Of a stretch of DNA of 16,519 nt, positions 2,619 through 12,638 are shown piece after piece (positions within the stretch are counted from its first letter, which is position 1; every line of letters starts with the position of its first letter). Source of the stretch: a virus (lineage: Duplodnaviria > Heunggongvirae > Uroviricota > Caudoviricetes); IMG/VR virus record IMGVR_UViG_2579778660_000005, one strand, 5' to 3'. A program made the translations under genes and the position numbers. The notes beneath the pieces are model-generated. The model saw only the letters and a list, made by a program, of their open reading frames with translations, had not been told where the DNA came from and searched no databases.

Positions 2619-3209
2619 ATGTCTCGAATTTTTGCTTACTGTCGGATATCAACGCTGGATCAGACCACCGAAAATCAACGCCGGGAAATCGAAAGTGCAG
2701 GTTTTAAAATCAAACCTCAGCAAATAATCGAAGAACACATTAGCGGCTCAGCAGCAACCAGTGAGCGTCCTGGTTTTAACCGGTTGCTTGCTCGCCTGAA
2801 ATGTGGTGATCAATTGATTGTGACAAAACTGGATCGCCTTGGTTGTAATGCAATGGATATCAGGAAAACAGTGGAACAACTGACCGAAACAGGTATCAGA
2901 GTGCATTGCTTAGCATTGGGGGGCATTGACCTGACCAGTCCAACAGGAAAAATGATGATGCAAGTAATTTCAGCAGTCGCTGAATTTGAACGAGACCTTT
3001 TACTTGAACGCACTCATTCCGGGATAGTAAGAGCCCGCGGCGCAGGGAAACGTTTTGGTCGACCACCTGTGTTAAATGAAGAACAGAAACAGGTGGTATT
3101 CGAACGAATTAAGTCAGGTGTAAGTATAAGTGCCATTGCCCGGGAATTCAAAACCTCGCGGCAAACCATTTTAAGAGCCAAAGCAAAACTTCAGACACCT
3201 GACATATAA
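2619..3209 (+). CDS. pinQ: Serine recombinase, Gin/Hin/Pin-family DNA invertase
   Basis: 196 aa; N-terminal catalytic motif YCRISTLDQ and C-terminal HTH region typical of Pin/Gin invertases. Confidence 0.93.
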
Positions 3210-3306
3210 AAAATAATCTCGGTGTGAGATGCTTTACGTCTTCCAAGCCCCCTTCCTTGCCGTAAATGGAAAGATACATCTAATTATAGAATTTATATGT
3301 TTTACC

Positions 3307-3882
3307 CTACGGCAGTGCTGGCCATTCAATATCCTGTGCAGTTGACGTATCAACACGGTTCAGCAATACCCGATACTTTTTCCATGCTTCCAGCAACGAG
3401 ATTTCTTCCTCCGTTGCAATTTCCAGATCTGCAGCATCCTGAAGCGGCGCAATATGCTCACTGGCTACCTGCATCAGGTTGTTTTTTGTTTCTTCCGCCT
3501 CCCGGATCCGGAACAGTTTTTCTGCTTCCGTATCCTTCACCCAGGCTGTGCCGTTCCACTTCTGAAACTCCCCTTCCGGCGATAACCAGGTAACATTTTC
3601 CGGTAACGGACCGAGTTCAGAAATAAATAACGCGTCCCCTGATGCCACGTCATAAACTGTTTTACCCCGATGGTCTTCAACAAGATGCCACGATGCCTCA
3701 TCACTGTTGAAAACAGCCACGAAGCCTGCCGGAATATCTGGCGGTGCAATATCGGTACTGTTTGCTGGCAGACCTGTATGAGGCGGAATATATGCGTCAC
3801 CTTCACCAATAAATTCATTAGTTCCGGCCAGCAGATTATAAATTTTTATGGTCTGTGGTTGTTCACTCATTCTGAATGCCAT
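3307..3882 (-). CDS. tfaQ: Tail fibre assembly protein (Tfa)
   Basis: 191 aa recalled as lambdoid Tfa; start ATG overlaps the stop of the upstream tail-fibre ORF (TAATG arrangement). Confidence 0.85.
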
Positions 3883-4796
3883 TATGCAAGCCTCACAATA
3901 TAGTTAAATGCGATGTTTTTGACGGTGTTTTCCGCGTTACCAGCAGCGTTAACGGTGATGGTGTGTCCATGTGAACCAATCGCAACGGAGTGCGTATGAG
4001 CACCAATACCGACAGTATGTGCGTGAGCACCTGCAGATGCAGCTGTGCCGCTGACACTATGAGTGTGCGCTCCTGCAGCACTTGTATTCACACTGGCCGC
4101 AGACACTACCTTATGTACTGACCCATTTTGTGACCACTGGCTGATTGCTGATGCGCCTGTGACACTATGAGTATGGTTTCCGGCACTTGCGGCTGTACCG
4201 CTCACACTGTGCGTATGCGCCCCGGTGTTATTCGTGGATTTAGTGCCGTAATCAAACGACGATGTGGTTTTCGTCCCCAAATCCGTACTGGATGCGCTGG
4301 CGCTGTGGGTGTGCGATTTAATGCCGTCCTGTTCCTGAGACAATACGGCCCGACCACTGGCAGGTTTGCCCTTAATCGTCCAGCCACGCATATCAGGGAT
4401 CACGCCTGACGGATAAGCGGCTGCAAGTTTCGGGTAAGCAGATTTGTCAAAAGTCTGCCCCTGCATCAGGGCATAACCAGACGGAACGGTATCTGATGGC
4501 CACGGGATTGGTGCACCGACTGGATAAAACTCTGCAGGAGGATGAGCCGAGGTGTAAAGCTGCGCCCACGGCGACCAGTTTGCGTCGGTCGTATCCCGTC
4601 GTGAACGAATAAATGCCGGAGCATGAGCACCGCTTGTACCACTCCAGCCGATGAGTAACTCACCTTCGCCAACGGCTGTCATCCCTTTCAGGTGAATGAT
4701 ATTTCCATACGCTGTTGGATATCCGTTGTTATACACCTCGTATAACTCAAGACCTGCTGCCCCCTGCGTATTGTCTGTCAGCGCGGCTAACCGCAC
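3882..4796 (-). CDS. stfQ: Side tail fibre protein, C-terminal receptor-binding fragment (GTG start at a deletion junction; N-terminal part missing)
   Basis: 304 aa rich in Gly/Ser/Thr with repeated [15 protein letters not shown] His-x-His motifs typical of tail-fibre tips; starts with GTG at 4796 directly after an in-frame TGA and overlapping the stop of the L fragment. Confidence 0.65.
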
Positions 4797-5338
4797 TCAT
4801 CACCGCGATAGGTCCAGGTGCAGGTGTTGGCCAGCATGATACGTCCCGGAAAAACAGCGCCGTCCGTTTCCGTCGGTGTGGACAACACAAAGGAGGCACT
4901 GACCGCACTCAGTTCGCTGCACTGCTCGATGCGCCAGCGGCTGATCACCTCCTGCTCCGGATCGGCGTCGCTGTTTCCGTTGACGAAGTTCACCGCATCC
5001 AGAAAACGGGCGTAAACCTTACGCCTGACCACCGTTCCGCCGACCAGACTCTGCAGGTCTTCCGCCATCCCGGTGACCATGCCGTGCAGGTTAGAAACCG
5101 TCAGTGTCGGACGGGCAGCACTGCCCTTGCCGTTCAGTTCAAATCCCGTCCCCTGAATGGGGTATGCCTGATACTGCCGCCCCTGCCAGGTAACCGGCTC
5201 ACCTTTTTCGTTCTGCTCATTACAGAAAAAATAACGTTCACCACCGACCTCTGTCAGATCGATTTCCCAGAGCACCACCTGGGCTGACTGAGTGAGGCGT
5301 GTCGTCTCATGATGTGTTTCCTGTGGAATATCCTGCAG
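4787..5338 (-). pseudogene. Tail tip protein L fragment (lambda gpL homolog lacking its ATG and about 50 C-terminal residues)
   Basis: Residues QDIPQETHH...VVLWEIDLTEVGGERYFFCNEQNEKGEPVTWQGRQYQ...[12 protein letters not shown] match remembered lambda L nearly residue for residue; CTG at 5336..5338 replaces the initiator; stop follows ECG. Confidence 0.8.
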
Positions 5339-5831
5339 CGCCCCTAAATTGCCGCGGGCCAGTTCACCTATCAGAACGCCTATCTCCTGGCGGGCTGCTG
5401 CACTTTTCAGACCCAGCGAATGCGTGGCTTTTCCTGCCTGCTCCATTTTGCGGATATACACTTCTGCAGCACTGCTTACCCCCAGCTGGGCTGCCTTAGC
5501 ACGAAGCAACTCAGAAGATGAAAGATTCAGGCGGGTTGACATCACTGGCCGGAATGAGTTGTGCCGTTTCCTGTTCGAACTTAAGACGCTCACGTTCAGA
5601 CTGATACCAGGCTTTGCGCTCATGCGCGTCCATTTCGCCTTCTGCAACCGGCGGTGGTAATGCCAGAAATGCCGACACAATATCAACCACCCGATAAAGC
5701 TTGAGGTTGCTTTCATGCCCCCCTGCAACGGGTAGATTTTGCAGCCTTGCCGCAGCAGTCTGGCGATGTACACCTGACAGTGCCGCCAGTTGACTGATAT
5801 TCAGCGTCAGATTTTTTAACTCTCGATCCAT
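5339..5831 (-). pseudogene. nohQ: Terminase small subunit, Nu1-like (NohA family), frameshifted near 5535 and continuing in frame into the L fragment
   Basis: 106-aa frame (5511..5831) resembles the lambda Nu1 N-terminus; a second frame open from about 5542 carries Nu1-like C-terminal similarity and runs without stop into L. Confidence 0.55.
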
Positions 5832-7608: not shown

Positions 7609-8088
7609 TTATCTGAGGCATTGCTCACGAATGTATCGCTGTGCCCCCTCCAGTTGTTTTTGCATTATGATCAGTCTTTCTCTGAGGGAGAAATAATCCC
7701 GTTCAGCGGTGTCTGCCAGTCTGGGGGAGGTTGCATTATCCACGCCGGAGGCGATGGTGGCTTCACGCACAGACGGACAGATTGCTTTGATGTGCAACCG
7801 ACGACGACCAGCGGCAACATCATCACGCAGAGCATCATTTTCAGCTTTCGCATCAGCTAACTCCTTCAGGTATTTTGCATCGAGTGCAGCAACATCACGC
7901 TGGCGTATCTGCATGTCAGTAATGATTGCGGTCGCCTGGTTGAGTTTTTCCGACACATTATCGCGTTGCGCTTTGTAGGTAATGGCATTATCACGGTAAT
8001 GATTAACAGCCCATGACAGGCAGACGATGATGCAGATAACCAGAGCATAAATAATCGCGGCAACTCTGCTCACTGCTCTATCCCCCAA
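7609..8088 (-). CDS. rzpQ: Spanin inner-membrane subunit Rz (i-spanin)
   Basis: 159 aa; N-terminal TM helix [33 protein letters not shown] and coiled-coil region near-identical to remembered lambda Rz. Confidence 0.9.
7671..7853 (-). CDS. rzoQ: Spanin outer-membrane lipoprotein Rz1 (o-spanin), embedded in Rz in the +1 frame
   Basis: 60 aa with lipobox LVVVGC and proline-rich core [18 protein letters not shown], very close to remembered lambda Rz1. Confidence 0.85.
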
Positions 8089-8603
8089 CAGGCTAATGCG
8101 CTTTCCTGGTCACGACGAATAACCTGACCATAACAGTTATTTGAACGAATGCGGCAATCGCGCCCCCTGTCCTTAATCCACCAGCGAATCGCCTCGCAGG
8201 CACCTTTACGATCACCTGCATTCAGCCGTTTATAAAACGTCGACGGAAAACACTTACCGGGGCCAATGTTATAGGGACAAAATGACGCGATACCCGCTTT
8301 CTGGGGTTCGGTCAGCGGCACTTTAATATTGCGCTCCACCCATGCCAGCGCCTTATCGCGTTCAATGGCATTAACCTGAGCACATTTTTCCTTCGTCAGT
8401 TTCATGCCCGGAATAACAGATTTACCATCCACCATCGTGGCACCACGACAGATGGTCCATATGCCGGAACCATCGCGGTATGCCGTAGTGTGGTTACCCT
8501 CTTTTTCATCCAGAAACTGGTCAAGTATCTGTGGAGCTGATGCGCCTGCTCCAATCAGCGCCAGAGCTGCAGCTGACAGGCCGTATTTGATTTTTGCGTT
8601 CAT
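8070..8603 (-). CDS. rrrQ: SAR endolysin (phage-21 R-type lysozyme)
   Basis: 177 aa; weakly hydrophobic Gly/Ala-rich N-terminal signal-anchor-release helix [16 protein letters not shown], then E...D...T lysozyme motif region. Confidence 0.9.
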
Positions 8604-8658: not shown

Positions 8659-8973
8659 CTAACAACCCGTAATCGAGTTATCAGAACTGTTAATTTTTAT
8701 GGTATACCGCGCCTCTGAACAGGGGCGCGTTTCTGGCAACAGCTCGTCCCCTTCACATAACCCGGCAGCAACATCCAGGAAGACCTGTCTGATGCTCCTT
8801 CTGGCTGCTGCCTCATAAAACTCCAGCGCGGCACCTTCAACACGGACCAGCGAGATGTCCAGGTCAAAAATTTCACCGTCAAAGCGTTCTTTGTCCCGTA
8901 ACGCTAAAGTTACCGTAACTTTATTCTCAAAATTGCGGATCCCTTTCACAATCAGTTCATATTTTTGAGTCAT
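8659..8973 (-). CDS. ydfR: YdfR-like protein (DUF1327) inside the lysis cassette
   Basis: 104-aa ORF between holin and endolysin genes, the same position as ydfR in Qin-type prophages. Confidence 0.65.
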   Translation of the reverse strand: MTQKYELIVKGIRNFENKVTVTLALRDKERFDGEIFDLDISLVRVEGAALEFYEAAARRSIRQVFLDVAAGLCEGDELLPETRPCSEARYTIKINSSDNSITGC

Positions 8974-8977
8974 TGAA

Positions 8978-9193
8978 TTACTCTCCCCGTGCAGCCTTAC
9001 GCTTGTCTTCTTTAATCTTGAAATAAAGGTTTGTCAGGTACGTCAGCAGGCCAAATACCAGGCTACCCAGCACACCTATTGCTGCCCACTGTGAGGGCGT
9101 GACTTTATCGAGCAGCTGTAAAAACCAGTAGCCAGCACTGCCTGCGGAGGTGCCGTAGGCAATGCCTGTTGAAATTTTGTCCATGGATTTCAT
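8978..9193 (-). CDS. essQ: Pinholin, S21-like class II holin with dual-start motif (71 aa)
   Basis: Sequence [26 protein letters not shown]...[13 protein letters not shown] matches remembered S21; two in-frame ATGs at 9193 and 9184 (minus) preceded by GGAGGTGA; the 90-aa track ORF is an unsupported upstream extension. Confidence 0.88.
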
Positions 9194-9295
9194 AGCCTCA
9201 CCTCCGCACGGAACGGATGGCATAGTTATTATGTGTAGGCTTCCAGACACATCAATCAGAGCCTTAATTGATATATATGCTGGAGACGATGCAAT

Positions 9296-9319
9296 ATAAA
9301 AAGCTCGCCGTAGCGAGCT
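9296..9319 (-). terminator. Rho-independent terminator (minus strand) between lipoprotein gene and holin
   Basis: Minus-strand AGCTCGC-TACG-GCGAGCT stem-loop followed by TTTTT. Confidence 0.55.
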
Positions 9320-9444
9320 AATAAAATGTATTTCTCTGATATTATGTTTATTTGTATTAGCTCAGACTTGACATCACAGGTTTCGTATATAGAACATCAT
9401 CAAATCTGTCAGTTTGCTATGAATGAGATATAGTAATTGAAGAG

Positions 9445-9840
9445 CTAACCTCGCATGTCAAAGCCAGATTTCTGAAAATCTCTGTAGACTTCCGGATTGT
9501 TGAAGGCCGGAAATTTGGCTTTATGAGCTGCGGACTTTATCGCTTCGCAATAGGCTTTATCACCGTTACTGGTAGATATTTTTAACGCCGTGCCATCCTG
9601 AGAGAATTCCATATGCAACCTGCATTTTTTCCCTTTCCAGTTATGCGGCTCATCAAGTTTGGCATTAATTGCAGCTCTGATTCCCCGCGCTTGCGCCCCC
9701 CATTCATCCTGATCATCCCAGCGTCCTGAACTGCAACTACCTGTAGCAGTAGTTTTGTGGCAATCTGAAGGGTGTAAAGGTGTGCATCCCGCAACAAAAC
9801 CGACCCAAAAAGTCAACATAACGATTTTCTTTAATCCCAC
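9445..9840 (-). CDS. Lipoprotein with diverged TolA domain III-like C-terminal domain (paralog 1)
   Basis: 131 aa; GTG start preceded by GGAG; signal peptide with lipobox VAGC; C-terminal part aligns with paralog 2 and with remembered TolA domain III. Confidence 0.75.
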   Translation of the reverse strand: MGLKKIVMLTFWVGFVAGCTPLHPSDCHKTTATGSCSSGRWDDQDEWGAQARGIRAAINAKLDEPHNWKGKKCRLHMEFSQDGTALKISTSNGDKAYCEAIKSAAHKAKFPAFNNPEVYRDFQKSGFDMRG

Positions 9841-9990
9841 TTCTTGCTCCTCAATCCATTAAAATCTCAGCAATAGTAGTTGTTACGTCCGCCACTGGCT
9901 CAGAGCTGACTATCCGCTAAATTTAGCTCAGTGCCGTAGTTGTGTCAGAACAAACCTAAGCCGAAACCGTTTATTACAAAACAATAAATA

Positions 9991-10419
9991 TCAGGGTTTA
10001 AAATCCAGCACCCCATTTTGAAATACTTTATATACTTCCGGCGAAGGGGGGGCAGGTATATCAGCATTCTTTATCGCATTCATCGCTTCACGACATAAAT
10101 CGAGGTCTCCACTTTCTCTTTTAACCTCCAGTAGAAGGCCATTCGGGGCCATATGCATTCTCAGTGTACACTCTTTTCCTGAATACTTACTCGCATCCCC
10201 GAACTGTTTTTCGATGGCGCTCTTGATTTGATGGGCATACAGACGGATATCCTCACTAACATCAGAAGTACGTTCAGATGAACTCACATACTGTGTCTCT
10301 ATTGCTTTATCGGAGTAATATGATGTACGGTCATGATAATTTGTCGATACAGCATCAGTGCACCCGATAATAATCCCACTAATAATCAACGTAAGAATTG
10401 ATGCGCTACGAAAACCCAT
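9991..10419 (-). CDS. Lipoprotein with TolA domain III-like C-terminal domain (paralog 2)
   Basis: 142 aa; ATG preceded by GAGG; lipobox IIGC; C-terminal 86 aa (YAHQIKSAIEKQF...GKECTLRMHMAPNGLLLEVK...IPAPPSPEVYKVFQNGVLDFKP) about 60 percent identical by eye to the remembered E. coli TolA C-terminus. Confidence 0.8.
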   Translation of the reverse strand: MGFRSASILTLIISGIIIGCTDAVSTNYHDRTSYYSDKAIETQYVSSSERTSDVSEDIRLYAHQIKSAIEKQFGDASKYSGKECTLRMHMAPNGLLLEVKRESGDLDLCREAMNAIKNADIPAPPSPEVYKVFQNGVLDFKP

Positions 10420-10448
10420 TTTTCCTCACATATGTCATATAGTAAAGG

Positions 10449-10454
10449 ATTATA
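10449..10454 (-). promoter_or_regulatory. Candidate -10 element (TATAAT) for the lipoprotein genes
   Basis: Perfect TATAAT on the minus strand about 30 bp upstream of the paralog-2 start; -35 is weak. Confidence 0.3.
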
Positions 10455-10952
10455 TATACCGTTGTTTTGGACGCTCAAACAGCGAATCAGATCAAATAAA
10501 ACGCACATTTGTTAACATTTACACAAAGTCTGCGTGGGATATTCTGAAAGAATATCCATAATGTGGAGAGAATCTATTGAAGTGCATGGTGCCGGGTGCC
10601 TCCCGGTGAATTCAGTACCAGCACCTGAATCCGCGATTATCCCATATACCTACTCGCTGATTGCCCCTCCGCACAGGGGGATTCACCATGCCAGTTTCTT
10701 TTAACAAACTCCCCGCAAACCAGAGAACAGTCAACCGCCTGAATTGTGAAGTATTTAAAAATTTCTCCCGCTAACTGATACCCGGCTAACAGTCTGGCGT
10801 TTTCTTTTTCAGCAACGGGAAAGCAACAACCACCACACCCGCCACCAGCACACCGTCAGCCAGCACTGACATTATCCGGCTGCTGCAATGCCATTCACAA
10901 AAACAGTAAGCAATCACTTTTTACCGTAACAGGTGATAATCCAGATATGTAT

Positions 10953-11306
10953 CTACCCCAGATGAGTAATCCGAAGTTCATCCATACCACAGGTCCTGGC
11001 TATTCTGTTGTACTCCTGAACAAGAGCAAATAATTCTGAATTAGCAACCATGAACTCATCGCAAACCCTCTGTATAGCATCACTATTCAGAATAATAACG
11101 TCTCTTCCCGAAAGACGATCAGGAGCACAGAACAAAACTGTCAAACGGCTGAAGGCCTTTGCTCGTGCTGCATTGACTATATCAATACGCTGCCTAAGGA
11201 TGAAACACCCCGACGCCTCATCAATATTCACTCTACCCACACCATATGAATGATAAATATTTAATGCTGAAAAAACCATTAGACCGTATAACAAACACTC
11301 AATCAA
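10953..11306 (-). CDS. Hypothetical protein (117 aa, TTG start; possible cargo gene)
   Basis: Long ORF in an AT-rich stretch, same orientation as the late operon, directly downstream of the tRNAs; no recognised motif; start codon uncertain. Confidence 0.35.
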   Translation of the reverse strand: MIECLLYGLMVFSALNIYHSYGVGRVNIDEASGCFILRQRIDIVNAARAKAFSRLTVLFCAPDRLSGRDVIILNSDAIQRVCDEFMVANSELFALVQEYNRIARTCGMDELRITHLG

Positions 11307-11493: not shown

Positions 11494-11597
11494 TGAATAC
11501 CGATAATGGACCGCCATCGGGGACCCGCCCCCCCCCGCACCAACAACCCTGTTATCGTGTCGTCTGCTCTTCCTGATAAGCTCATGGCGGTTTGTGA

Positions 11598-11673
11598 TGG
11601 TGGCCCTTGCTGGATTTGAACCAGCGACCTGGCGATTATGAGTCGCTCGCTCTCACCACTGAGCTAAAGGACC
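11598..11673 (-). tRNA. ileZ: tRNA with CAU anticodon (Ile2-like or Met)
   Basis: 76-nt cloverleaf: acceptor GGUCCUU/AAGGGCC, D-stem GCUC/GAGC, anticodon loop CUCAUAA, T-arm GCUGG-UUCAAAU-CCAGC, 3' CCA; one mismatch at the top of the anticodon stem. Confidence 0.8.
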
Positions 11674-11712
11674 GGGAGCAGAATAATAACGGTCCGTAAT
11701 TAATTCCGCAAT

Positions 11713-11736
11713 AAAAAACCCGCTCGGTGGCGGGTT
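11713..11736 (-). terminator. Rho-independent terminator downstream of Q (tR'-like)
   Basis: Minus-strand AACCCGC-CACCGA-GCGGGTT stem-loop followed by a U-tract. Confidence 0.6.
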
Positions 11737-11783
11737 GTAGAAACTCTTCTAACGTCAGGCATAAAACGCCCATCTTTATGACG

Positions 11784-11811
11784 AATTTACCACAGATTCC
11801 GGAAAAATCAA
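11784..11811 (-). promoter_or_regulatory. Late promoter pR'-like (-35 TTGATT, 16-nt spacer, -10 TAAATT)
   Basis: Lies immediately after the Q stop codon; remembered lambda pR' is TTGACT/TAAATT in the same position relative to Q. Confidence 0.5.
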
Positions 11812-11816
11812 CCTTG

Positions 11817-12638
11817 TTACCTAGTTACCTTTTTTAACTGCCGCTCAGCCCATGCTTCTTCAATATCAAACCGGGTCACCAGCGCATCATAGAATTTCTT
11901 AACTGTTTTTTCCCATGACGCGCGTGTTATCTGGTTTGTCACCTCGCATATAGCATTAAATGCCTCCGTTGATGGTAGTCTTTCATAGCCCCGACCACCA
12001 CAACGCTGGCAGTCTCTGATAACAGGCATACCACGTTTTACCGACTCTTCACGGTGAATGGCGACACCACGCCCACGGCAATCCTTACAGGCGGTGGAAA
12101 CCTCACCCTTTCCGCCACACTCCGGACAGGCAACTTTTACCACCTCCCTGACTTTTTTCCATTCTTCCCAGTAAGACGGATACACACCTTTCGTACACTT
12201 TGCCCATACCGGCGGCTTACCATCCGGATACTGGACCTTGTTTGTAAAAACTACGCTTTCAATAAATTTTTCCCCATAGCAACAAGGGCACTGCTTTTTA
12301 CTCGCTGCGCTGCGGGCATAATCCTCAAAAGCGTACGAAGCCATAATGCGCATCACTAACGGTTTTATTTCTGCCGGAAGTTTTCTCAACGCCGCCACAC
12401 GATCGCACCGACTGAGTGCATAATCTGCCAGTAATTCTGTTGCCCGCGCCCTGTCATTCATACTGATGCCCATTTTCCCCAGGAACGCAGAAAATCCCAT
12501 CTCAGCCCGATTCTGTGTCATGCCCTGCGCGGCCATCACATCAGTGATACTCAGCGCATCTTTTGACGTTGAGGCCGATGCATCGGTCAGGCCAGGGGAT
12601 TTTGGGGAGTAGTATTTCGGTAAATCTTCCAGTTTCAT
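11817..12638 (-). CDS. quuQ: Late-gene antitermination protein Q (lambda Q family)
   Basis: 273 aa; shares with remembered lambda Q the blocks SPKSP...TDVMAA.GM, CxxC-GxG zinc motifs (CKDCRGRG, CQRCGGRGY) and TVK..YDALV. Confidence 0.9.
   Translation of the reverse strand: MKLEDLPKYYSPKSPGLTDASASTSKDALSITDVMAAQGMTQNRAEMGFSAFLGKMGISMNDRARATELLADYALSRCDRVAALRKLPAEIKPLVMRIMASYAFEDYARSAASKKQCPCCYGEKFIESVVFTNKVQYPDGKPPVWAKCTKGVYPSYWEEWKKVREVVKVACPECGGKGEVSTACKDCRGRGVAIHREESVKRGMPVIRDCQRCGGRGYERLPSTEAFNAICEVTNQITRASWEKTVKKFYDALVTRFDIEEAWAERQLKKVTR

Follow-up and report, generated by a model that had tools for sequence, protein, structure and literature searches.

What lies between the antiterminator gene Q and the tRNA genes that follow it, and does it control late transcription? 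The genes of this region of the window (the whole 16,519-nt stretch of viral DNA analysed here) are read on the minus strand, and the sequence-only reading had pointed to a promoter, TTGATT and TAAATT with 16-nt spacing, directly past the Q stop codon; both hexamers are present there on that strand. It had also likened the segment to the pR'-qut-tR' arrangement of phage lambda, a comparison that gains backing from the homology of Q, the identical -10 hexamer, the register of the sigma-70-dependent pause element (SDPE) and the annotations of the P22 and phi80 records. We consider it very likely that the cassette is a late switch of the lambda type, consisting of a promoter (pR'), a Q-binding element, a sigma-dependent pause and a terminator (tR'). 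Coordinates are collected in Table 1, which includes a pause element and a candidate Q-binding site, neither of which figured in the sequence-only reading.

Table 1. Features of the Q-pR'-tR' region and of the genes downstream of it, in order of transcription
Feature	Coordinates	Strand	Remarks
Q antiterminator gene	11817..12638	minus	ORF, 273 aa; stop TAA 11819-11817
pR' -35 hexamer TTGATT	11811-11806	minus	5 nt (caagg) after Q stop
Spacer tttccggaatctgTGg	11805-11790	minus	16 nt, between -35 and -10
Candidate Q-binding element TTCCGGA + TGG	11804-11798 and 11792-11790	minus	By positional homology; binding predicted
Extended -10 TGn	T11792 G11791 g11790	minus	3' end of spacer
pR' -10 hexamer TAAATT	11789-11784	minus	Identical to lambda pR' and P22 -10
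Predicted transcription start A	11777	minus	7th nt after -10; positional homology to lambda +1, P22 record
Sigma-70-dependent pause element AAAGAT (+1..+6) + GGG (+7..+9)	11777-11769	minus	Lambda register
TATG (+15..+18)	11763-11760	minus	TNYG consensus; predicted pause ~+17
tR'-like intrinsic terminator	11736-11710	minus	Stem 11736-11717, then U6AUU
Candidate tRNA promoter TTGCGG, 17 nt, TATTAT	11711-11706 and 11688-11683	minus	Predicted
tRNA(CAT)	11673-11598	minus	ARAGORN + Rfam; first gene past terminator
tRNA-Arg(TCT)	11493-11417	minus	ARAGORN + Rfam
Promoter-like TTGAGC-18-TATAAT	10478-10449	minus	Upstream of TolA-like genes
TolA-C-terminal-like genes	9991-10419 and 9445-9840	minus	
Second intrinsic terminator	9319-9302	minus	Past TolA-like genes, before holin gene
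Holin	8978-9250	minus	Pfam
DUF1327	8659-8973	minus	Pfam
Lysozyme	8070-8603	minus	Pfam
Rz	7609-8088	minus	Pfam; lysis cassette = 7609..9250

The Q protein and the promoter behind its gene

The 273-aa product of the Q gene matches the Pfam family PF03589 ('Antitermination protein Q') with E=2.6e-55 and lambda Q (PDB 7UBM chain Q, also 4MO1 and 7UBJ) with E=3e-40. Of the three unrelated families of Q proteins, PF03589 represents the Q-lambda family (Yin et al. 2022, PMC9388147). The alignment to lambda Q covers the N-terminus (aa 1-113) and the C-terminus (aa 182-273) of the window protein; the ~68 aa between them (aa 114-181) form an insert, relative to lambda Q, with two extra CxxC motifs in the zinc-ribbon 'arm', which brings the motifs to four versus two in lambda Q. 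A DnaJ_CXXCXGXG match in the protein falls under the Pfam cutoff (28.4 vs 32.7 bits). The gene is intact and full length, and an identical Q is found in several other contigs. Judged by these matches, the protein is a true homologue of lambda Q.

Loci of Q relatives were taken from species-representative genomes and named phages, and the protein alignment took in the lambda, P22, phi80, HK225, Gifsy-2 and QuuQ-like proteins. Among the representatives, Q is 92% identical in E. albertii and 48% in Entomohabitans, and QuuQ-like proteins (250-252 aa, 40-44% identity) are found in Escherichia, Shigella, Mangrovibacter, Atlantibacter, Scandinavium, Kosakonia, Phytobacter and Buttiauxella. Identity among the phages falls from 59% in HK225 through 45% in Gifsy-2, 41% in phi80 and 39% in a Stx2c phage to 29% in both P22 and lambda.

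TTGATT and TAAATT together match the promoter consensus at 8/12 positions, and a generic sigma-70 promoter scan with a threshold of 9/12 did not list the site. Because such a scan misses it, hexamer similarity was discarded as evidence in favour of the composite motif and homology. The TTG of the -35 and the TAnnnT of the -10 are kept in all Q relatives compared, and the complete -35 is unchanged in 66 near-identical loci and in 13 of 16 further loci.

The spacer between the hexamers holds the candidate Q-binding element (QBE). In the phi80 record, the site for its Q protein (gp17), an assignment that rests on GenBank annotation only, is TCGCGGA at spacer positions 2-8, where the window has TTCCGGA. 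At positions 14-16, TGG is common to lambda, P22, phi80, Gifsy-2, the QuuQ-like loci set out for comparison and the window, with HK225 (TGT) and the QuuQ-like locus L007 (TGC) as exceptions. The spacers of HK225 and E. albertii are nearly identical to that of the window, reading TTCCCGA versus TTCCGGA at positions 2-8; in lambda and the QuuQ class, positions 4-7 read T(G/C)AA. These spacer classes track the lineage classes of the Q helix-turn-helix (recognition helix), a correlation that fits cognate pairs of Q and QBE. Since the spacer measures 16 nt in the window and 17 nt in most relatives, the candidate QBE lies 1 bp nearer the pause element than it does in lambda.

Pause element, terminator and predicted leader RNA

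The lambda pR' region reads TTGACT-17-TAAATT-tgactc-A(+1)ACGAT-GGG, with +1 marked in PMC4604602, and its -10-like hexamer and discriminator-like GGG constitute the SDPE, the site of Q loading (PMC9191641). In the window, 6 nt (cgtcat) separate the -10 from the pause hexamer AAAGAT, and cgttt lies between GGG and TATG. The scrunched paused state at lambda pR' is favoured by T+14 N+15 Y+16 G+17 (PMC9191641); the TNYG of the window is shifted by +1 relative to lambda. AAAGAT matches the -10 consensus at 3/6 positions, the same as lambda AACGAT. The pattern TAnnnT-N6-AAnGAT-RGG is found a single time in the 16.5-kb window, where shuffled sequences predict 0.01 occurrences. The pause element is more diagnostic than the promoter hexamers, and the composite, unlike the two hexamers by themselves, lies beyond chance.

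The -35-like TTGACT that lambda has just upstream of the pause hexamer binds sigma region 4. The window has a weak counterpart, TCGTCA, beside its pause hexamer (4/6 match to TTGACA). As relatives do not keep TCGTCA, it was discarded as a lambda-type -35-like element.

The same layout recurs 3' of the Q gene in nearly every relative: TTGnnn, a 16-17-nt spacer, TAnnnT, 6 nt and AAnGAT-GGG, with T-N-Y-G following within +13..+18 (TATG or TGTG in nearly all). Among these loci the pause-element pattern was not matched in ES18 and in one Mangrovibacter locus (L005). Two of the phage records carry annotations for this layout. That of P22 labels a late promoter, a segment 'similar to lambda qut' and a terminator (t-late/tR'), and places the 'probable 5' terminus of late RNA transcript' at the first A of AACGAT; that of phi80 labels the pR' -35 and -10, the gp17(Q) site and a terminator.

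The locus could also be read with incidental hexamers, the hairpin serving as the terminator of the early operon or of Q, and the tRNAs and later genes relying on promoters of their own. The failure of the generic scan to list the site is in keeping with this, as is the separate promoter-like element before the tRNAs, and the terminator would also stop unmodified transcription leaving Q. Such a reading cannot, however, explain why a -10, a 6-nt gap, AAnGAT-GGG and TNYG are conserved in one register in lambda, P22 and distant genera alike, nor the uniqueness of the motif in the window, nor the annotated homologues in P22 and phi80, and we regard it as highly improbable.

The sequence-only reading had placed a strong intrinsic terminator within about 50 nt of the promoter, and the hairpin indeed begins 47 nt past the -10. 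Its stem, AACCCGC/GCGGGTT (7 bp, of which 5 are G-C pairs), closes a 6-nt loop (caccga) and is followed by TTTTATTG; cctgacgttagaagagtttctac lies between TATG and the stem. The predicted folding energy is -11.2 kcal/mol, compared with -4.4 +/- 2.0 for shuffles (z = -3.44). The 3' end of the RNA is predicted at about 11712-11710, which gives an RNA of 66-68 nt. A constitutive short RNA of this kind should be made in every lysogen. Terminators are present in all relatives, with stem sequences that differ between lineages, and are annotated in the HK225, ES18, phi80 and P22 records. The predicted terminated RNA measures 57-70 nt in every relative except lambda, whose 194-nt 6S RNA is the exception among these Q relatives.

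The leader itself is conserved in part: positions +19..+28 (...C-CGTTA...) are kept across lineages. A conserved RNA structure behind the conservation of +1..+28 was considered and discarded, as the fold is weak and covariation was not found: the whole leader folds marginally better than shuffles (z = -1.69), and compensatory change across relatives was seen in 0 of 8 predicted pairs of the early leader. A literature search for the exact leader sequences found nothing relevant.

It is conceivable, though unlikely, that the ~66-nt pR'-tR' RNA also acts in trans as a small RNA (sRNA) in lysogens, in the manner of StxS, a role that would be compatible with the switch. The terminated RNA of Stx phage pR' is an Hfq-binding regulatory sRNA, and antiterminated promoters have been proposed as a general source of sRNAs (Sy et al. 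2020, PMC7547250). In the window leader, +10..+28 is kept across lineages with 40-48% Q identity, and Gifsy-2 has a near-identical block. At its 3' end the leader RNA has a Rho-independent terminator and U-tract, the kind of end to which Hfq usually binds. Of 5,426 finished E. coli genomes, moreover, ~2,400 have the module, and most of the prophages concerned are no longer able to make virions. Against an sRNA role, Rfam searches at the gathering threshold and at E<=10 returned only tRNAs above threshold and thus no sRNA family, the nearest being a sub-threshold match to isrK (RF01394; 13.9 vs 50 bits), and architecture is all that the leader has in common with StxS. The leader fold and the absence of covariation in the early leader do not favour such a role either, and the conservation of +1..+18 is already accounted for by pause determinants at the DNA level (PMC9191641).

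An attenuator of the leader-peptide or riboswitch type, acting on the tRNA genes, has in its favour a sub-threshold match to Trp_leader (RF00513) that spans exactly 11710-11816. Its score, 26.8 bits, is under the gathering threshold of 41, and we attribute the match to the generic layout of a short leader and a terminator. Neither a Shine-Dalgarno sequence nor a Trp-codon leader ORF, or any Trp-rich ORF, is visible in the sequence, and the alternative antiterminator pairing has no covariation support. Such an attenuator is effectively excluded.

Allele variation at the pause element

Variation was followed in 63 near-identical copies of the module, with at most 30 differences over 970 nt. Heterozygosity averages 0.006 in Q and 0.028 in the intergenic region. 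Only 5 of the 970 aligned sites have at least three alleles, and positions +3, +4 and +11 of the pR' transcript are among these. The pause hexamer is AACGAT in 30 copies, AATGAT in 15, AATAAT in 7, AAAGAT in 5, AACAAT in 3, AACTAT in 2 and GATGAT in 1, so that the allele of the window is a rare one (5/63); the alleles span 3/6 to 5/6 matches to the -10 consensus. Invariant in all 63 copies are the -35 and the sigma-contacting positions, namely hexamer positions 2, 5 and 6 and GGG. TATG changes only at G+18 (A in 6 of the 63), and the -10 and the terminator stem show singleton changes only, most terminator variation being in the loop. Two alleles, each with T at +11, were looked up as exact 66-nt sequences in finished E. 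coli genomes and proved real and common: AATAAT was matched in 255 genomes and AACGAT in 83. Deeper relatives nearly all keep AACGAT.

This pattern bears on whether the cassette might be a decaying relic, with the rare AAAGAT as a degenerate, non-functional pause allele. Decay would suit the deletion of structural late genes from this defective Qin-like prophage, the unusual polymorphism of the pause hexamer and the rarity of the window allele. Decay would not, however, spare the critical positions, and the -35, hexamer positions 2, 5 and 6 and GGG are invariant in the 63 copies, with singletons only in the -10 and the stem. Q is intact and of full length and recurs unchanged in several other contigs, AAAGAT equals lambda AACGAT in its match to the -10 consensus (3/6), and phage mEp460 carries a 98.7%-identical module. 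We therefore consider a relic improbable.

What generates the variation is a separate matter. The three tri-allelic sites represent at least 6 mutational events in 9 nt, against an estimated ~0.5 expected at the Q rate. Each of the two hot spots is a CG dinucleotide, with G-to-T/C-to-A transversions among the changes. One Q haplotype can carry several hexamer alleles, and one allele recurs on several haplotypes. As a tentative suggestion, in which we place limited confidence, the variation at +3, +4 and +11 reflects either selected tuning of the lifetime of the Q-loading pause or transcription-associated mutagenesis at a paused complex that stays open and scrunched for long at a constitutive promoter. 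If tuning were the explanation, pause lifetime would set the lysis threshold or basal late expression. Q haplotypes show recombination, which is another possible source of allele mixing at the pause element.

Downstream genes, known late switches and a proposed mechanism

The sequence-only reading had a Q-dependent switch feeding the tRNAs, cargo genes and lysis cassette. All of these genes do lie downstream, and that part of the proposal holds; the tRNAs and the cargo genes, on the other hand, have promoter-like sites of their own. TTGCGG-17-TATTAT overlaps the tail of the terminator and lies ~10 nt before the tRNA 5' end, and homology to the tRNA module of Stx2a phages begins exactly at the terminator T-tract and takes in this element. 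Records of phiP27 label the homologous tRNA region as tRNA-Arg and tRNA-Ile. With a promoter-like site of their own before them and a terminator after them, the accessory TolA-like genes resemble an autonomous moron. Strict dependence on Q is improbable for the tRNAs and the accessory genes alike.

Past Rz, the window continues with a DUF1398 gene, a terminase-small fragment (5511-5831) with a truncated tail-L gene (4787-5773) directly after it, then stf/tfa tail-fibre and assembly genes, the gene of an invertase of the Pin type and that of a host MFS transporter. By this gene content the prophage is defective and Qin-like, with most structural late genes deleted. The 'late operon' would thus consist here mostly of tRNAs, accessory genes and lysis genes, and, the prophage being defective, the switch may never operate in this strain.

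The module is nevertheless widespread: a 141-nt query matched 2,415 of 5,426 finished E. coli genomes (roughly 45%). At >=99% identity, the 141-nt region was found in only 2 of 2418 E. coli records. In phage mEp460 (LR597641.1) the module is 98.7% identical.

Among characterised or annotated systems, lambda has in common with the window a Q of PF03589, the -10 TAAATT, a hexamer at +1 followed by GGG, TNYG and the TGG at spacer positions 14-16; upstream of the lysis genes, both have a constitutive promoter and then an intrinsic terminator. It differs in that its promoter lies 42 nt past the Q stop, versus 5 nt in the window, and in having a 17-nt spacer, compared with 16 nt and an extended -10 TG in the window. 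Its spacer (QBE) begins ATTGAATAAA... rather than TTCCGGA..., its terminated RNA is 194 nt as against ~66 nt, and tRNAs and accessory genes are placed between tR' and the holin gene in the window. P22, with P-late, qut and t-late, has a leader of ~58 nt and its annotated 5' end, qut and terminator in register with those of the window; unlike the window, its gene 23 protein is of the short lambda type (207 aa), and its promoter and QBE differ hardly at all from those of lambda.

Phage phi80 (GenBank JX871397) has a Q of the long type, 41% identical over its full length. Besides the annotated Q site at the spacer positions of TTCCGGA and the TGG at 14-16, it has a short leader and a nearby terminator. 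It differs by a 17-nt spacer, a pause hexamer AACGCT-GGG after a 7-nt gap, another Q recognition helix and the absence of downstream tRNAs. QuuQ-type loci resemble the window in their Qin-like prophage context (pin-tfa-stf ... lysis ... Q-rusA-DUF968), in a Q of 250-252 aa (40-44% identical) with a shorter version of the insert, in AACGAT-GGGC after Q and in predicted RNAs of 57-70 nt; they differ in spacer class (ATTCAAAAA...), in the recognition helix, in a 17-nt spacer and in having no tRNAs. A literature search on quuQ/ydfT/quuD found nothing relevant and no experimental characterisation of this class.

The pR'-StxS-tR' region of Stx phages has the same order of Q, constitutive terminated late promoter, tRNAs, cargo and lysis genes (PMC7547250), and its tRNA module (ileZ-argN-argO) with the promoter-like element is 87% identical to that of the window. 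Its Q differs, Q933W belonging to the unrelated Q21 family (Yin et al., PMC9388147), as does its terminated RNA, which is 258 nt long and processed to a 74-nt sRNA (PMC7547250), and its tR' is separated from the tRNAs by a methylase gene. A near-identity search found no sequence similarity between the Stx leader and the leader in the window, and the Q type of the window is not included in the comparative paper on Stx pR'. The departures of the window from lambda are all precedented in phi80, P22 and the Stx phages. Weighing against a lambda-type switch are the 8/12 match of the hexamers, the 16-nt spacer, the weak and unconserved TCGTCA, the rarity of AAAGAT and the defective state of the prophage.

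From the elements, geometry, conservation and Q homology observed here, transcription start, pausing, Q binding and read-through can be predicted as follows for a lambda-type switch. Sigma-70 holoenzyme would start constitutively at about A11777. Sigma region 2 would then re-bind the non-template AAAGAT-GGG, and the complex would pause, scrunched, at about +17 (TATG). Without Q, polymerase would escape, terminate at 11736-11710 and free the ~66-nt RNA. When Q is present it would bind the spacer DNA (candidate TTCCGGA...TGG) and load on the paused complex, which would become terminator-resistant. Read-through would then cover tR', the tRNAs, the accessory genes, the terminator at 9319-9302 and the holin-lysozyme-Rz genes.

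The current understanding of antitermination is unchanged by this element, which is ordinary and well understood in kind: to all appearances a textbook Q-dependent late switch in a widespread E. coli prophage module. What the analysis adds for annotation is a set of exact coordinates for the predicted start, the pause element, the candidate Q site and the ~66-nt RNA. The variation of the pause hexamer could be used to study how pause strength relates to the threshold of late-gene expression. For the family, it shows that the long, QuuQ/phi80-like branch of Q-lambda proteins combines lambda pause-element geometry with very short leaders; with its short leader and enlarged zinc-ribbon arm, the cassette may thus offer a compact natural test case for Q loading.

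Variation and conservation at the start of the predicted late transcript

Comparison of 63 near-identical copies of the module (drawn from loci L001, L003 and L019-L098) identified three alleles at each of positions 3 and 4 of the pause hexamer, the −10-like sigma-dependent pause element at the start of the predicted pR′ transcript, and three more at +11, with no change at the sigma-contact positions. The hexamer exists in seven allelic forms (AACGAT, AATGAT, AATAAT, AAAGAT, AACAAT, AACTAT and GATGAT), found repeatedly and on differing Q haplotypes. Finished genomes commonly carry the two alleles tested (AATAAT and AACGAT, in both cases with T at +11).

Leader positions +10 to +28 (GGGCnTTnTATGyC...CGTTA) are conserved between lineages that share just 40-48% identity in Q. 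No RNA covariation was seen in leader +19 to +28. The lambda leader contains AACG...CGTT, differently spaced.

The insert in Q

The insert contributes two extra CxxC motifs, giving a total of four in the window's Q; the DnaJ_CXXCXGXG match in this protein lies under the Pfam cutoff (28.4 versus 32.7 bits). The long form of the insert is shared with the Q proteins of phi80, HK225 and Gifsy-2, whereas the QuuQ-like proteins, 250-252-aa relatives from Qin-like cryptic prophages, have a shorter version. The "arm" of lambda Q contacts the Q-binding element (QBE) and sigma region 4, and in the window's Q this arm is enlarged by the insert.

A QuuQ-type Q was also observed in locus L014 (contig JAGZPX010000007.1), labelled as a Veillonella parvula MAG. 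The 260 nt 3′ of Q in this locus are identical to those of Escherichia ruysiae (L013), and the presence of the locus in a Veillonella MAG probably reflects mis-binning or contamination.

Cargo genes and the defective prophage

The 117-aa ORF, which has no Pfam match, contains an internal, weak terminator-like hairpin. The STnc100 match, inside the predicted late transcript, has the tRNA/ORF region on one side and the TolA-like genes on the other. The TolA-like pair is flanked by a 10/12 promoter-like site and a strong terminator, and this unit, just 5′ of the holin gene, is moron-like. The prophage is defective: in the 2619-5831 region, a terminase-small fragment runs into a truncated tail-L gene. 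The genes here, together with the host MFS gene, are arranged as in the Qin cryptic prophage.

Further features of the window
Feature	Position	Strand	Remarks
Q residues 114-181	12096-12299	minus	~68-aa insert relative to lambda and P22 Q
Variable sites	11774-11775 and 11767	minus	+3, +4 and +11 of predicted pR′ transcript
Conserved leader stretch	11750-11768	minus	compared with L102 (Gifsy-2), L018, L006-L017
Promoter-like TTGCGG-17-TATTAT	11683-11711	minus	directly 5′ of tRNA, overlapping terminator tail
tRNA-Met(CAT)	11598-11673	minus	ARAGORN call
Nine-G run	~11528-11536	minus	C on plus strand; spacer separating the two tRNAs
117-aa ORF	10953-11306	minus	directly 3′ of tRNAs; phrog_2873 (unknown function, E=2e-69)
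Weak hairpin	11117-11099
STnc100 sRNA	10530-10720	minus	Rfam, full length; 114 bits vs gathering score 47
10/12 promoter-like site	10478-10449
Moron-like unit	9302-10478	minus
Two paralogous TolA C-terminal domain genes	9991-10419 and 9445-9840	minus	both phrog_5772
Strong terminator	9319-9302
Terminase-small fragment	5511-5831
Truncated tail-L gene	4787-5773
Tail-fibre gene	3882-4796		after truncated tail-L gene
Tail-fibre assembly gene	3307-3882
Rfam "IS009" match	3341-3539	minus	220.9 bits, full length; inside tail-fibre assembly gene
Pin-type invertase	2619-3209	plus
Host MFS transporter	1-1284

Identity and expression of the tRNAs

The nine-G homopolymer could be a site of slippage or be prone to sequencing errors. 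Since phiP27 records annotate the homologous region as tRNA-Arg and tRNA-Ile, not tRNA-Met, the gene called by ARAGORN may instead encode an ileX/ileZ-like tRNA, its CAT anticodon modified to read AUA. The terminator T-tract is the exact mosaic junction with the homologous tRNA module of Stx2 phages. Together with the promoter-like element 5′ of the tRNA, this junction suggests that the tRNAs can probably be expressed without Q.
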